A stretch of 64,000 nucleotides of DNA from Candidatus Magasanikiibacteriota bacterium (GTDB taxonomy: Bacteria; Patescibacteriota; Patescibacteriia; Magasanikbacterales; GWA2-37-8), in NCBI GenBank assembly GCA_963840935.1, contig CAWJAS010000001.1, positions 192,875-256,874 on the forward strand, written 5' to 3'. The position numbers and the translations under genes were made by a program. Positions within the stretch are counted from its first letter, which is position 1; the number at the start of each line of letters is the position of its first letter. The notes below the pieces were generated by a model. That model ran no database searches, was not told the origin of the DNA, and saw only the letters and a list, made by a program, of their open reading frames with translations. Below, piece after piece: positions 11,715 through 49,382 of this stretch.

Positions 11715-13109
11715 ATGCGCGAATTACAAGAAATAAAAGATATTTTTAAAAAAAGTTTTGATTATATCGGAAAGCAGATAAAAGTCGGTGGTTGGGTAAG
11801 AACTACACGCGAATCAAAAAATGCGAATTTTATTGAACTCAATGACGGTACATATTTTTCTAATTTACAGATTGTTTTTGACGATAATTTGGCTAACGCG
11901 GAAGAAATAAAAAAGGCTTCAATCGGCAGTGCCTTAATTATTACGGGCGACCTAGTTGAATCAACGGGCGCTGGTCAGTCGTTTGAATTAAAAGCAAAAG
12001 AAATTGAAATAATTGGCCATTCAACTTCGGAGTATCCCTTGCAAAAAAAACGCCACTCATTTGAATTTTTGCGTGAAATCGCTCATTTGCGTCCTCGTTC
12101 AAACACTTTTTCTGCCGTTTTTCGCGTTCGCTCGCTTGCCGCTTATGCCATTCACAAATTTTTTAATGATAAGGGTTTTGTTTATGCTCAAACCCCGATT
12201 ATATCCGGCAGTGATTGCGAGGGAGCGGGGGAGATGTTTCAGGTTACAACTCTTGATTTAAAAAACATGCCAAAAGATGAGCGAGGCGAAATTGATTTCA
12301 AGGATGATTTTTTTGGCAAACGCGTTGGGCTAACCGTTAGCGGACAACTCGAAGCCGAGGTTTTTGCCATGGCCTTCAAAAAAGTTTACACTTTCGGACC
12401 TACTTTTCGGGCGGAAAATTCAAACACCAAACGCCATGCGTCCGAGTTTTGGATGATTGAGCCGGAAATCGCTTTTGCCGATTTAACGGATGATAAAGCA
12501 CTGGCCGAAGAGTTTGTTAAATATATAATTAATTATGTGCGGGAAAACGCGCCCGAGGAAATGGCTTTTTTTAACAAATTTATTGATACCGAATTGTTTG
12601 AAAAGCTGGATGTTGTGGCGAATTCACCGTTTGAGCATATTACCTATACGGAAGCCGTTGAAATTTTGGAGAAGTCGGGCCAAAAATTTGAATTTCCGGT
12701 CGGCTGGGGCAAGGAATTACAAACCGAGCATGAAAAATACCTAACAGAGGTGGTTTATAAAAAACCGGTATTTGTTACCGATTATCCGAAAGAATTTAAA
12801 GCTTTTTATATGCGCCAAAATGATGATGGTAAGACCGTGGCCGCCATGGATTTATTAGTGCCGGGAATTGGCGAAATAATCGGAGGTAGTCAGCGTGAAG
12901 AGCGCTTGGAAAAATTGGAGTCGCGGATGAAGGAAATGAAATTGGACGCTAAGGATTATTGGTGGTATTTGGACCTTCGCCGTTACGGTGGTGTACCTCA
13001 TGCCGGGTTTGGTCTGGGTTTCGAAAGATTGATAATGTATTTAACCGGAATGGATAATATACGCGATGTAATACCATTTCCGAGAACTCCAAAAAATGCC
13101 GAATTTTAG
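11715..13109 (+). CDS. asnS: Asparaginyl-tRNA synthetase (class IIb)
   Basis: N-terminal OB domain. Motifs [34 protein letters not shown] and GFGLGFERL. Confidence 0.8.
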
Positions 13110-13117
13110 CCAAAAAA

Positions 13118-13147
13118 TCACCCTCAAATAGGAGGGTGATTTTTTAT
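13118..13147 (+). terminator. Bidirectional intrinsic terminator between asnS (+) and the phosphoesterase gene (-)
   Basis: tcaccctc-aaata-gagggtga flanked by an A-run and a T-run. Confidence 0.65.
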
Positions 13148-13155
13148 TCAAAAAT

Positions 13156-14115
13156 TTATTGCGTAAATTGAACTATCACTACTTCCGGAACGGCAAAAAA
13201 ACGTAAGGAAGTCCCTGATTCTCCGGCGCCGACAGAAGTGTAAACTGGCGCGTCATTAAAATAATTTAAACCGCGATAATATTCTTTTTGAAGTATTGTT
13301 TGCGCTCCGGCCAAAGGACCAAAAAATGGAATCCAAATTTGCCCGCCGTGCGTGTGTCCGGCAAGTGTTAAATCAGGGTAAGGTAAATTTGTTGGGTATT
13401 CCAAAATTCCATCCGGATTGTGAGTTACAAAAATTAAGGGAATATTTTTATCCCAATTTGTTAATTCAGAAAAATTCGGTTTGTTTTTCCAAATTTCCGC
13501 CAGTCCAAATAAGCAGATTTTTTGGTTTTTGATTTCTACGCACTCAAGTGAATTATTTAATAGTTTAAAACCAAAATTGTTAAAACGATTAATAACTAAT
13601 TCAGACCTGTCACCGGTGTATTTTTCCGGCTTGGTTCTCACAGTGCCCCCGATGCCGTATTCATGATTGCCAAGAACATAATAAACAGGATATTTTTGAA
13701 GAATTTGCAATGGCAAAAGATATTCACTTTCGTCCTCAAAAGTTCCTTCGTTGCTTATCATATCCCCGCCAAAGATAACAATATCTGGCTTGGCAGTATC
13801 TATTTTTTCGGCTACTTTTTTGCTCCAGCCGGTTTTTTTGTGCATTCCGACTTGAATGTCGCTCACAAAAGCGATTTTTATTCCTTCCAGTTTTTCATTT
13901 TTAATTTCAATTTTTTTTGTAACAAGCAAATAAGGCTCAACAAGTGTTGAATAAAGCGCCGTGATTATACCGGTAAAAAAAATAAAAATAAAAATTGCGC
14001 CAATAAATTTATTACGGTTGAAAAATAAATTCGGTTTTTTTCGGTCGCGGGCGATAAAAAAAATCAAGAGCCCTGCCACCAAAATATACCCGTACGTAAT
14101 TATTAAGAGAAACAT
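13156..14115 (-). CDS. Membrane-anchored calcineurin-like metallophosphoesterase (YkuE-like)
   Basis: N-terminal TM helices. Motifs GDMISNEG, VLGNHEYG and GHTHGGQIW. Confidence 0.75.
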   Translation of the reverse strand: MFLLIITYGYILVAGLLIFFIARDRKKPNLFFNRNKFIGAIFIFIFFTGIITALYSTLVEPYLLVTKKIEIKNEKLEGIKIAFVSDIQVGMHKKTGWSKKVAEKIDTAKPDIVIFGGDMISNEGTFEDESEYLLPLQILQKYPVYYVLGNHEYGIGGTVRTKPEKYTGDRSELVINRFNNFGFKLLNNSLECVEIKNQKICLFGLAEIWKNKPNFSELTNWDKNIPLIFVTHNPDGILEYPTNLPYPDLTLAGHTHGGQIWIPFFGPLAGAQTILQKEYYRGLNYFNDAPVYTSVGAGESGTSLRFFAVPEVVIVQFTQ

Positions 14116-28139: not shown

Positions 28140-28206
28140 TTTTTCATCAAGTTCCGGCAAGGGTTATTTGCCGGAAGCAAACGGTTGGCAAAAAAAGGAG
28201 GGAAAC

Positions 28207-28665
28207 ATGGGTGCTCGTCAAAGAAGGGACTTGGAACATGCGGTCGCGCCAGTGTCGGGGAGGCGCGAAAAGGAGACCGACAAGATCAAGGTGATGATCA
28301 TGAGGCCGGGAAACGGCCATTACGAACCTTTTTTGTTCCGGCTTAGCTTGACCGACTTTTTTCAAGGGAAAATGGTTCAGGTCTACGGGCGTCCGGATCC
28401 TGACGCGAGCGATCGGATAATAAAAGTGCAGAAGCTCGTTTTCCGTTCGAATAAGGATTTGGACAAGGTTGTTCAGTTGGCAACCGACAGCATCATCGGT
28501 TTTCACCGTGCGAAAGCGGTTGTCCGCTACGGAGAAAAGCCCGACCTGTCCGGTGTGGGCGACCAAGTCAGTCGTTTTCTCGACAAGCTCGTTCGGCATC
28601 CGGCGATTGAAGTGAACGCTTCTTTGTTCCCCAACTTTTCTCGCCTCGGCACCAAACCCGCCTAG
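28207..28665 (+). CDS. Hypothetical 152-aa protein encoded in a GC-rich (about 53% GC) island
   Basis: Strong SD AAGGAGG 5 nt upstream of the ATG at 28207. Own promoter and terminator (agtcccac...gtgggact + T-run, 28701-28739). No recognizable family. Confidence 0.55.
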   Translation: MGARQRRDLEHAVAPVSGRREKETDKIKVMIMRPGNGHYEPFLFRLSLTDFFQGKMVQVYGRPDPDASDRIIKVQKLVFRSNKDLDKVVQLATDSIIGFHRAKAVVRYGEKPDLSGVGDQVSRFLDKLVRHPAIEVNASLFPNFSRLGTKPA

Positions 28666-28752
28666 AATTGCAATCAACCCCAAATAGCTCTTTACGAAAA
28701 AGTCCCACCTCGCGTCATGTGAAGTGGGACTATTTTTTTATTTGAAATTTTT

Positions 28753-45375: not shown

Positions 45376-45762
45376 ATGATTGAGACATCAAAAGATATTT
45401 TATATATCGTAATTTCATTTTGTGTTTTGTGGGCGACAGTATTTCTTTGTTGGATGTTTTATTATGCCGGTAAAATTTTAAAAAATACCAGCCAGATTAT
45501 TGAAGAATTCAGAGTTCGCCTGCAAGCATTGGCCGACGCCATCGGATATATTCAAGAAAAAGTCGAGTATTTGTCGCTCGCCATGAGTTCTGTTTTTAAG
45601 GGCGTGGGTGAAACAGTCAAAGACACGGTTATAAAAAAAGCAAAAAGTTGGATGAATAAAAAATCCGATGACTGCGACAGTTCGGCCAAAGAAGCGGTAG
45701 ACCGAGCGGTGGCAAAAACTGCCGAAGGGATAAATAATATCACAAAAAAGATTAAAGAATAG
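45376..45762 (+). CDS. Hypothetical small membrane protein
   Basis: One N-terminal TM helix. Terminator cgcccgc-ttgtttg-gcgggcg + T-run at 45778-45805. Confidence 0.45.
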   Translation: MIETSKDILYIVISFCVLWATVFLCWMFYYAGKILKNTSQIIEEFRVRLQALADAIGYIQEKVEYLSLAMSSVFKGVGETVKDTVIKKAKSWMNKKSDDCDSSAKEAVDRAVAKTAEGINNITKKIKE

Positions 45763-45860
45763 ACATAACAAATCAAATCGCCCGCTTGTTTGCGGGCGTT
45801 TTTTATTAAAAAAGCATGCCTTGCTTTTGCCCAAAAATTACGGTAAGATAAGCCCACAAT

Positions 45861-48800
45861 ATGAGTAATTTTGTTCACTTGCATGTGCATAGCCATTATT
45901 CTTTGCTTGATGGCTTGCCGAAGATTAAGGAATTAGTTTCAACCGCCAAAAAGCGCGGTTTTTCGGCATTGGCTTTGACCGACCACGGCAACATGTATGG
46001 AGCGATTGAGTTTTACGAGCAGTGTCTGAAAAATGAAATAAAACCGATAATCGGCATGGAGGCCTATGTGGCGCCAGGGTCGCGATTTGAAAAAAATGGA
46101 CCGGATAATAAATATTATCATTTGGTTTTGCTTGCGCTTAATTACACCGGTTACAAAAATTTAATGAAGTTGACTTCGCTTGCCAATTTGGAAGGATTTT
46201 ATTACAAACCGCGGATGGACAAGGAGTTATTGAAACAATACAGCGAAGGGTTAGTGGCCAGCTCCGCCTGCATGGGTGGAGAAATAGCTCGGGCGATTTA
46301 AAAAGAAAATAATTATGCCAAAGCAAAAAAAGTCGCTCTTGAATATCAAGAAATTTTTGGCGTGGGTAATTTTTATTTGGAGATGATGGATTTGCCGGCG
46401 CTTGAAGGGCAAACCGAGCTTAATAATAATTTAATTAAACTGTCGGAAGAAACAAAAATTCCTTTGATCGTGACGCGCGATGTTCATTATTTGAACCCCG
46501 AGGATTCCGAGGCGCAGGATATTTTGACCTGTATTAGAGACGGCGTTACTTTGGATGACCCGAATCGGCCGACCGATGCGGGCATTGATTGTTCTTTTGC
46601 CACAGGCGAAGAAATTGCCAAGCGTTTTAAGCATTGCCCGCAAGCGGTTGAAAATACGGCCAAAATCGCCGAGCGAGTTGATTTGCAGATTGAACTTAAT
46701 AAATGGCATTTTCCGCCGATTGCATTGCCCCCCGGAAAAACGGCCGACGAACATTTGCGCGACGAAGTTTATGGGCGTTTACCCGGTTTGACCGAAATTA
46801 CCGATGAAGTAAGAAAAAGAGTTGAGTATGAGTTGGAAATTATTTCTACCAAAGGTTACTCCCCGTATTTTATTGCTGTCGCAGATTATGTGAATTACGC
46901 CAAAGACAATGGTATTATCGAAACAACTCGCGGATCAGCTGCCGGTTCCATGGTTTCATACGCCATGGGAATTGTCACGGTTAATCCAATGTTTTTTAAA
47001 CTTCCTTTTGAGAGATTTTTAAATCCGTTCAGACCGAGTCCGCCGGATATTGATACTGATTTTGCCGATGACAGACGCGACGATATGATTGCTTATGTGA
47101 CAAAAAAATACGGTGAAGACAAGGTGGCGCAAATTATCACTTTTGGTACGATGATGGCGAGAGGTGCCGTGCGCGATGTTGGGCGCGCCTTGGGTTATTC
47201 ATATTCGTTTTGCGACCAAGTGGCAAAATTGATTCCGGCCGGCGCGCAGGGGTTTCAGGTGACCATTGCCACAGCAATGGAAAAAGAAAAAGATTTGCAA
47301 AAAATGTATGATGAAAATGCCCAGGTAAAACGCCTTTTGGATTTGGCGCAAAAAATTGAAGGATGCAATCGGCATACTTCCATTCACGCCGCCGGCGTGG
47401 TAATTTCTCCAACCGCGTTAACGGATTTTACACCGGTTCAGCGTGAAACAGGTGGAGAAAGAATTGTGACACAATACGAAATGCACGCGGTGGAGGCGGC
47501 CGGTGTTTTAAAAATGGATTTTCTAGGTATTCGCAATTTATCTATTTTGGGACATGCGGTTGTAATTATAGAAAAAACAACCGGCAAAAAAGTTGATATA
47601 TTTAAAATTCCTTGGGACGATAAAAAAACCTATGACATGCTTGCCCGTGGTGAAACAGTCGGTGTGTTTCAGCTTTCCAGTTCGGGCATGACCCGTTATT
47701 TAAAAGAATTAAAACCGGCTTCCATTTTTGACATTATGGCCATGGTGGCGCTTTTTCGACCGGGCCCGATGGAAGTTATTCCCGAATACATTAACCGCCG
47801 GCATCATCCCGAAATGATTGAGTATCTGGATCCGAGAATGAAAGATTATTTGGATCAGTCGCTTGGGCTTATTGTTTATCAAGATGATGTACTTTTGACT
47901 GCCATAAATTTGGGCGGATACAATTGGGAAGAAGCGGACAAATTCAGAAAAGCGATGGGCAAAAAAATTCCCGAAGAAATGGCCAAGCAAAAAGAAAAGT
48001 TTTTTAACGGTTGTCGTGAATTCGGAAAATTGCCGGAAGTGAAAATCAATGTGCTTTGGGAACGCATCGCGCCTTTTGCCGCTTATGGTTTTAACAAAGC
48101 GCACGCTTCAAGTTATGCCGTGGTTGCCTATCAAACCGCCTATCTTAAAGCCAATTTTCCGATTCAGTATATGACGGCTATTTTGATTGCCGAGTCGGGC
48201 GATATTGATAAAGTGCCGGCTATTATCGCCGAGTGCGAAAAAATGGGGATAAAAGTTTTGCCTCCGGATGTGAATGAAAGTTTCAAAAATTTTGCCATGA
48301 TTCAAGCCGAGTCGGGCGAATCCGCGCATATTCGTTTTGGTTTGCAAGGAATAAAAAATTTGGGCGAACATATTGCCGAGGTGATTTATCGAGAAAGAAA
48401 AAATAATGGAAAATATAAAGATTTGGAAGATTTTTTGGGTCGAGTGCAGGATAAAGATTTGAATAAAAAATCATTGGAGTCACTGGTCAAATGCGGAGCG
48501 ATGGATTCTTTTGGTTATGACCGCGGTTTACTTTTGGCAAATATCGATAACTTGCTTGCTTTTGTCAGGTCAATAAATGAAAGCACAACCACCAAGCAAG
48601 ATTCATTATTTTTCGGTACGGCCATTGATTTGAATAAAAAAGTCAGATTGGATCCTGCCCATGAAGCCACGGACACAGATAAAATGAATTGGGAAAAAGA
48701 ATTGCTTGGTCTTTATGTTTCGGCCCATCCATTTTCAGAGGTTGAGCAAATTATGAGAAATGTTTTGACTCCGCTAAATGATTTGCAAAGCAAGCCAAGA

Positions 48801-49382
48801 GGCGATTGGGTGGTAGTGGGAGGAGTGATCGATAAGGCAAAAAAGAAAATTACTCGCAAAGGCGACACCATGATGTTTGTTACAATTCAGGATTTGAGCG
48901 GAAGTTTGGAATTATTGGTTTTCCCTCGCACATATGAAACAACCAAAGATGTTTGGGTTGAAGGCAGATTGGTTTGCGTGGTTGGGAAAACTTCGGAAGA
49001 AGAAGGCGATGATAAATTGTTTGTGGAAAAGGCCTATGAATTAAATGAAAATAACGCGCCCGTGATTGCCATGCAGATGAACGCCGGAGTTCAAGCAACA
49101 ACATCTTTTTCTAGGCGCGCCGCGCAAATACCAAATGATTATTATCCGTCAGAGCCGGAAAATTATTATCCGGAAACCGGGCTTTTGATTACGCTTGCGT
49201 CGGCTGAAGTCAAAGAAAAAGCGGATGCCATTAAAGAAATTTTGGAGAAATATCCGGGTGATAAGCAGGTTTATTTGGCCGTCGCGGGAAAAAGAATAAA
49301 AACATCATATTTAATTAAAATGACGGCTGATTTGGCGAATGAATTGGATGAACTTTTGGGGAAAGGGAAGTTGAAGTATTAG
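45861..49382 (+). CDS. dnaE: DNA polymerase III alpha subunit; reading frame contains an in-frame TAA at 46299-46301, and the same frame continues (track ORF 46362..49382)
   Basis: PHP N-terminus HLHVHSHYSLLDG. After the stop, the same frame reads KENNYAKAKKVALEYQEIFG...NFYLE, matching the conserved ...EYQEIFG...FYLE region of DnaE. Total about 1173 codons. Confidence 0.85.

Follow-up and report, generated by a model that had tools for sequence, protein, structure and literature searches.

How does a bacterium come to carry an in-frame stop codon in dnaE, the essential, single-copy gene for the alpha subunit of its replicative DNA polymerase? The question is raised by a 64,000-nt stretch (hereafter, the window) of a 770,905-bp contig from a Candidatus Magasanikiibacteriota bacterium, in which the dnaE reading frame is broken once by TAA and continues directly behind it. 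An earlier note on this DNA, made from the sequence alone, had placed the stop within the PHP domain and had offered a sequence error, readthrough or reinitiation downstream as explanations, which proved to be the right three options to weigh. We followed them up by comparing the locus with its closest orthologue, with a wider set of relatives and with independently assembled contigs, and by analysing selection on the gene, the nucleotide context of the stop and the use of TAA elsewhere in the window.

A single in-frame TAA divides dnaE

Translation of the dnaE frame from ATG 45861 to the terminal TAG at 49380–49382 revealed one internal stop, the TAA at 46299–46301, which lies inside the PHP domain (Table 1) in the coding context ...GCGATTTAAAAAGAA... 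The 5′ product ends in ...GGEIARAI (...SSACMGGEIARAI) directly before this TAA, and the zero frame after it reads KENNYAKAKKVALEYQEIFGVGNFYLE... and stays open as far as the TAG, in agreement with the earlier observation that the frame resumes at once. Comparison with NCBIfam profiles assigned the N-terminal piece to positions 3–148 of NF005298 and the C-terminal piece to positions 181–1149, and the product of 46392–49379 alone scored 1011 bits against NF004226, for which the curated cutoff is 1002. DnaE homologues contain the Pfam domains PF02811 (PHP), PF07733 (DNA_pol3_alpha), PF17657 (finger), PF14579 (HHH_6) and PF01336 (OB); the collinear architecture of PHP domain, pol III alpha core, fingers, HHH and OB is present in the window as well, spread over more than a single ORF, and the deposited 996-aa product (P0002) starts only at TTG 46392. 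Because the frame aligns end to end with intact DnaE proteins of 1150–1190 aa, at up to 92% identity, the break is not a matter of chance. Together, the translation, the profile matches of both pieces and the full-length alignment bear out both the identity of the gene and the in-frame stop described in the earlier note.

Table 1. Features of the dnaE locus (positions are those of the window)
Feature	Position	Strand	Description
Upstream hypothetical gene	45376..45762	+	128 aa; anchor for contigs of the same or a near-identical organism
Complete dnaE frame	45861..49382	+	DNA polymerase III alpha; 1173 codons plus TAG, one interruption
5′ ORF	45861..46301	+	146 aa; first half of the PHP domain
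In-frame TAA (codon 147)	46299..46301	+	T46299 is C in the closest orthologue (CAA, Gln)
30 conserved codons, KENNYAKAKKVALEYQEIFGVGNFYLEMMD	46302..46391	+	Between the TAA and the restart called in databases
Candidate restart codons, in frame	46362..46394	+	GTG 46362, ATG 46383, ATG 46386, TTG 46392
3′ ORF, GTG start	46362..49382	+	1006 aa; remainder of PHP domain (D207/H209), polymerase core, fingers, HHH, OB, C-terminal tail

The closest orthologue has a glutamine codon at the site

A homologue search of 5.8 billion proteins yielded thousands of intact DnaE proteins of approximately 1150–1190 aa whose sources are named as Magasanikbacteria or Patescibacteria. The best homologue (P0001, 1186 aa) aligned with the dnaE of the window in one tblastn high-scoring segment pair (HSP) covering residues 1–1186 at 91.7% identity, and its contig, L001 (JGI 3300005077), is syntenic with the window, the order M48 peptidase, LemA, M50 peptidase, PheS, PheT, 128-aa protein, DnaE and Fpg being common to both. 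At the position of the TAA, L001 has CAA within a gap-free 38-nt stretch that is otherwise identical (18 nt on the 5′ side and 19 nt on the 3′ side), so that GATTCAAAAAG in L001 stands opposite GATTTAAAAAG in the window. The three nearest proteins (91–92% identity) have Q, Q and A at residue 147. The most parsimonious event suggested by this comparison would be a single C>T transition that turned CAA (Gln) into TAA; the origin from TTA that had been put forward earlier conflicts with both the CAA of L001 and the residues of the three nearest proteins. The altered base is flanked by a T run on one side and an A5 run on the other (GATT[C>T]AAAAAG).

Position 147 is variable and the stop is absent from relatives

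For the comparison with relatives, we drew on metagenome and genome collections for the dnaE loci of related Patescibacteria, 161 in all. No stop was present in codons 1–461 of any of the 161, none of them was broken at the position at which the dnaE of the window is split, and the conservation of the stop among orthologues that would mark a recoding site was thus found at 0 of 161 loci. Column 147 of the alignment is hypervariable and ranks among the least constrained of the region: besides 18 gaps it contains 17 different residues, among them L (37), A (25), R (15), V (13), M (10) and Q (9). Alignment to the structures of Thermus aquaticus DnaE (2HPI) and M. tuberculosis DnaE1 (5LEW) placed residue 147 in the PHP domain, just after the Cys motif (SSAC) and before the (D/N)DxHY motif. 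The residues at PHP ligand positions are accordingly divided by the TAA, with H6, H8, D17, H42, E67, H87 and C137 encoded on its 5′ side and D207 and H209 on its 3′ side; in view of the 2HPI and 5LEW structures, we take these conserved residues at metal-ligand positions to have a catalytic role.

A 129-aa truncated DnaE N terminus (P0122, on contig L002), which clusters with the 5′ fragment, was considered as a second nonsense case and rejected, as it belongs to a different relative, lies on a contig of 604 bp and diverges at its end into unrelated sequence. In that contig (ENA ERZ27282986 k141_2012223) conserved DnaE is lost after ...DKEILK, with unrelated DNA beyond, and its end is probably chimeric or rearranged. 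The DnaE of another relative from the same clade, P0059, is 1590 aa long and contains the intein domains PF14890 (Intein_splicing) and PF14528 (LAGLIDADG_3), which are unrelated to the TAA site.

The stop recurs in one run and an intact allele occurs in another

The exact 146-aa product of the 5′ ORF was found on the source contig and on a 2,862-bp Logan contig of run ERR12035938, an independent k-mer assembly in which the downstream ORF starts as it does in the window; the run may hold the reads of the metagenome-assembled genome (MAG) itself. Its presence in this assembly indicates that the T is shared by several reads from one run or more and is not confined to a polished consensus; an error of the assembler or polisher alone becomes less plausible, and a real allele stays in contention. 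The identical 128-aa protein encoded upstream of dnaE was found on three contigs only, namely the 770,905-bp source contig, the Logan contig of ERR12035938, in which dnaE is broken, and a Logan contig of run ERR15459710, in which it is intact. The last of these (6,049 bp) contains an uninterrupted dnaE ORF of 3522 nt and 1173 aa, a length that equals the total of the window exactly, compared with 1186 aa in the next relative. Its geometry also equals that of the window, the end of pheT and the 128-aa gene being 88 nt apart and the starts of the 128-aa gene and of dnaE 485 nt apart. Judged by the length of its ORF, the ERR15459710 contig should have a sense codon at position 147, and the intact 1173-codon dnaE on this near-identical contig indicates that the stop is not fixed in the organism.

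Exact look-ups of repaired DnaE proteins with Q, K, E, L, S or Y at residue 147 gave zero matches in the collection. The 38-nt pattern with N at the site gave 0 matches in the metagenome and genome contig collections; as the scan missed even the contig of L001, those collections do not contain these records. Protein-based scans of metagenome and genome contig collections recovered relatives of at most 80% identity and no allele of the same species, and exact look-ups of PheS, PheT and Fpg found no further contigs of the same strain on record, the deposited 996-aa product being likewise absent from the contig index. The literature searched contained no mention of ERR12035938 and no relevant work on in-frame stops within the dnaE of Patescibacteria.

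Both halves of dnaE are under purifying selection

Relative to L001, dN/dS was 0.017 for codons 1–146, 0.048 for codons 178–1000 and 0.078 for the C-terminal tail, with dS at about 0.9 overall; both halves of dnaE are under strong purifying selection. A single lesion in a gene with dN/dS of 0.02–0.08 points to strong constraint until very recently and is incompatible with an old pseudogene, and the multiple lesions and relaxed selection of a decaying pseudogene were not seen in dnaE (one lesion; dN/dS of 0.017 and 0.05–0.08).

The longest near-identical run between the dnaE of the window and that of L001, which share 85% nucleotide identity overall, is found at 46281–46361 (81 nt with at most 2 mismatches), where local dS is 0.13 against about 0.9. 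A nucleotide element embedded at 46281–46361 was considered and rejected, as comparable runs of 59–68 nt are present at other positions and the synonymous sites of this stretch differ among more distant relatives; the low synonymous divergence after the TAA probably reflects conserved Lys, Glu, Asn and Tyr residues encoded by AT-biased two-fold codons. The predicted RNA fold of 46285–46430 is somewhat more stable than that of shuffled sequences (z = −3.1) and includes the mutated base, which pairs in the window only and would form a C·A mismatch in L001; comparison with relatives gives this fold no support. Of the hallmarks of recoding, neither a leaky stop context nor a conserved downstream stimulatory structure was found, the context being TAAA, as in 23 of 44 genuine TAA terminators, and the fold being unconserved. 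We also considered a base-calling artefact caused by GANTC methylation, the restored site being GATTC, and rejected it, as the motif is depleted neither in the window (197 observed versus 206 ± 11 expected) nor in L001. The GANTC counts thus lend no support to a systematic loss and leave room for a context-specific error.

TAA is the ordinary terminator and the other genes examined are intact

The window has a G+C content of 40.8%. Stop usage across its 59 long ORFs is TAA 45, TAG 9 and TGA 5, the 45 including the 5′ piece of dnaE; without that piece, TAA ends 44 of 58. Among the stop tetranucleotides TAAA and TAAT predominate, and TAAA, the commonest context among the genuine TAA terminators, is also that of the in-frame stop in dnaE. 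Because TAA is the main terminator and the in-frame TAAA is its commonest genuine context, reassignment is out; a TAA left unused as terminator, or frequent in frame within conserved genes, was not observed in the window. Its five tRNAs (Leu-CAA, Val-CAC, Arg-GCG, Met and Glu-UUC) include no suppressor tRNA and no UUA anticodon.

Each of the 16 other genes shared with L001 aligned as one collinear HSP without stops or frameshifts. A Pfam scan of 20 further ORFs gave 16 full-length domain matches, among them a Clp-type ATPase, TopA, RecG, Der, RadA, RelA/SpoT, RNase Y, ParA/ParB, DprA and Pth; four had no match and none seemed split. The integrity of these genes indicates that the break in dnaE is isolated and that the assembly is not generally error-ridden. 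Elsewhere in the window, two ORFs are nearly coextensive on opposite strands, 28147–28683 on the minus strand (178 aa) and 28168–28665 on the plus strand (165 aa), and the product of the former had no Pfam match.

Neighbourhood of dnaE

Directly after the 128-aa gene, at 45775–45806, a G+C-rich hairpin is followed by a T run (GCCCGCttgttTGCGGGCGTTTTTT), which looks like an intrinsic terminator; dnaE would therefore probably have its own promoter in the spacer of approximately 55 nt. A Shine–Dalgarno (SD)-like motif was present within 25 nt upstream in 5 of 46 ORFs with an ATG start, mostly at unsuitable spacing, and A/T-rich stretches precede the starts, a pattern suggestive of initiation independent of SD motifs in this Patescibacteria genome.

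Downstream of dnaE, the Fpg homologue of the window (49564–50484) has 307 aa compared with 270 aa in L001, differs from it by 37 gap positions and matches TIGR00577 in two stretches, and it appears to be a glycosylase with an insertion of approximately 37 residues. Between fpg and tsaD, L001 encodes a 203-aa protein (12802–13413) that has no counterpart at 50599–51100 of the window, where the fpg–tsaD gap of approximately 600 nt holds only a 70-aa and a 44-aa ORF. A 225-aa gene of L001 (495–1172) is also missing from the window.

The TAA is probably a private single-base lesion

On our best reading of these data, the TAA reflects neither programmed recoding nor codon reassignment nor a split of the gene by design. 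Most probably it is a private lesion of a single base, which arose either as an artefact in reads or consensus or as a deleterious allele that has not become fixed. One C>T change at 46299 would have made the Gln codon CAA into TAA at a non-conserved surface position of the PHP domain, and this change would be private to the source assembly and its read set. The working dnaE of the organism would then be the uninterrupted 1173-codon form, as on the ERR15459710 contig and in every relative examined. The change may be a systematic read or consensus artefact, the C lying between a T run and an A5 run, or it may be a real, recent, unfixed and probably deleterious allele in that sample; either way, the lesion would be without function. 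With an intact allele on a near-identical contig and no conservation of the stop, there is no reason to expect a real, dominant TAA allele, and we consider one highly improbable. If it were real and in the majority in the sample, such a null allele in the sole replicative polymerase would demand some mechanism of rescue.

One such mechanism is readthrough of a real nonsense allele, in which near-cognate decoding of UAA keeps the cell alive. For example, a tRNA-Gln(UUG) that mispaired with the first base of the codon could reinsert the ancestral Gln, and little full-length DnaE might suffice, a replicative polymerase being needed in few copies; as position 147 tolerates almost any residue, any insertion by readthrough would give a functional protein. 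The reproduction of the TAA in the independent ERR12035938 assembly and the intact, constrained remainder of dnaE would fit this explanation. However, both release factors recognize UAA, which leaks less than the other stops in the bacteria studied, TAAA is the commonest genuine terminator context of this genome, the stop is present in none of the 161 relatives and the near-identical contig has an intact allele. The predicted fold (z = −3.1) is unconserved, and the nucleotide conservation is explained by AT-biased codons. On balance, we regard readthrough as unlikely, and its full form, with a majority TAA allele in a single dnaE and a Magasanikbacteria-like cell surviving by near-cognate tRNA-Gln readthrough, as somewhat less likely again. 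Still less probability attaches to a DnaE in two pieces, in which translation stops at the TAA and restarts at GTG 46362, ATG 46383/46386 or TTG 46392, and the 146-aa and approximately 1000-aa fragments reassemble non-covalently. Start codons do lie in frame 61–91 nt 3′ of the TAA, databases annotate both ORFs separately, and a restart at any of these codons is conceivable given largely SD-less initiation on AT-rich leaders, the sequence after the TAA being AT-rich too; with so few SD motifs at gene starts, their presence cannot discriminate among the candidates, and we found no supporting evidence for the use of any of the four. Against a restart, 20–30 conserved residues would be lost, including the ALEYQEIFG...FYLE segment, and the PHP barrel would be split between the ligand-position motifs of C137 and D207/H209. 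No relative is split at the TAA site, an intact allele exists, and the site shows neither a gap in the alignment nor an intein or other added sequence. The specific reinitiation at GTG 46362 that the earlier note had named falls on the same grounds: no relative is broken there, and at least 20 conserved residues would be deleted and the PHP ligand residues separated.

If, instead, dnaE were a young pseudogene, a second C-family polymerase (polC or another dnaE) would be needed elsewhere in the 770-kb genome. One recent lesion is how a very young pseudogene would be expected to look, but dN/dS of 0.02–0.08 gives no sign of relaxation, relatives keep an intact dnaE in the same synteny, and the 64-kb window holds no second polymerase, its other ORFs above 700 aa encoding the Clp-type ATPase, TopA, RecG and PheT. 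Patescibacteria genomes normally have one dnaE, which also speaks against this explanation, and we consider it very unlikely, if a shade less so than the two-piece DnaE. Decoding of TAA as sense, by an alternative code or a dedicated suppressor tRNA, has nothing in its favour beyond the in-frame stop itself. In 44 of the 58 other long ORFs the terminator is a TAA, located where homologues would place it, the other conserved genes examined in the window have no in-frame TAA, and no tRNA in the window has a UUA anticodon; within the window, sense decoding is effectively refuted, and we give it almost no credence. A frameshift or bypass was rejected because the conserved protein runs on in the zero frame without a gap.

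Implications for the deposited genome

The deposited genome will show dnaE as two ORFs or as a pseudogene, and surveys of completeness or of essential genes in Patescibacteria could then wrongly score an intact replicative polymerase as lacking. A real and dominant allele would be of modest interest as an essential gene that tolerates a nonsense codon, and if readthrough were true, a natural essential replication gene would be running on basal stop-codon leakiness in a bacterium with a reduced genome. Unless the TAA allele proves to be real and dominant, there is nothing new here.

Comparison with known systems

The locus most resembles an ordinary nonsense or base error in a MAG, of the kind that leads to a split or 'pseudo' annotation. 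It consists of one transition, isolated, unconserved and without added sequence, in a gene that is otherwise intact and constrained and of which an intact allele exists on a near-identical contig. It differs from the ordinary case in that an essential single-copy replication gene is affected, and the reproduction of the TAA in an independent assembly of one run makes a trivial polishing error less likely than usual. With programmed readthrough, as in the A1 protein of phage Q-beta at a leaky UGA/UAG, it shares an in-frame stop behind which the coding frame continues at once. In the known cases, however, the stop is conserved in relatives and as a rule is UGA or UAG, leaky and in weak surroundings, whereas here it is UAA in the standard terminator context of the genome and is unique to one assembly. 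The split DnaE of cyanobacteria (DnaE-n/DnaE-c) similarly has its coding capacity spread over two ORFs, but there the split lies in the polymerase core and the halves are encoded at separate loci with the halves of a split intein, whereas the ORFs of the window are contiguous, in the same frame and one codon apart, with the break in the PHP domain and no intein. No intein halves flank the TAA site, across which the alignment is gap-free and contains no extra sequence. Last, the programmed +1 frameshift of the prfB type also involves an internal stop in an essential gene, but the coding sequence downstream of the stop in dnaE continues in the same frame and not in +1, and the +1 frame closes after approximately 29 codons.
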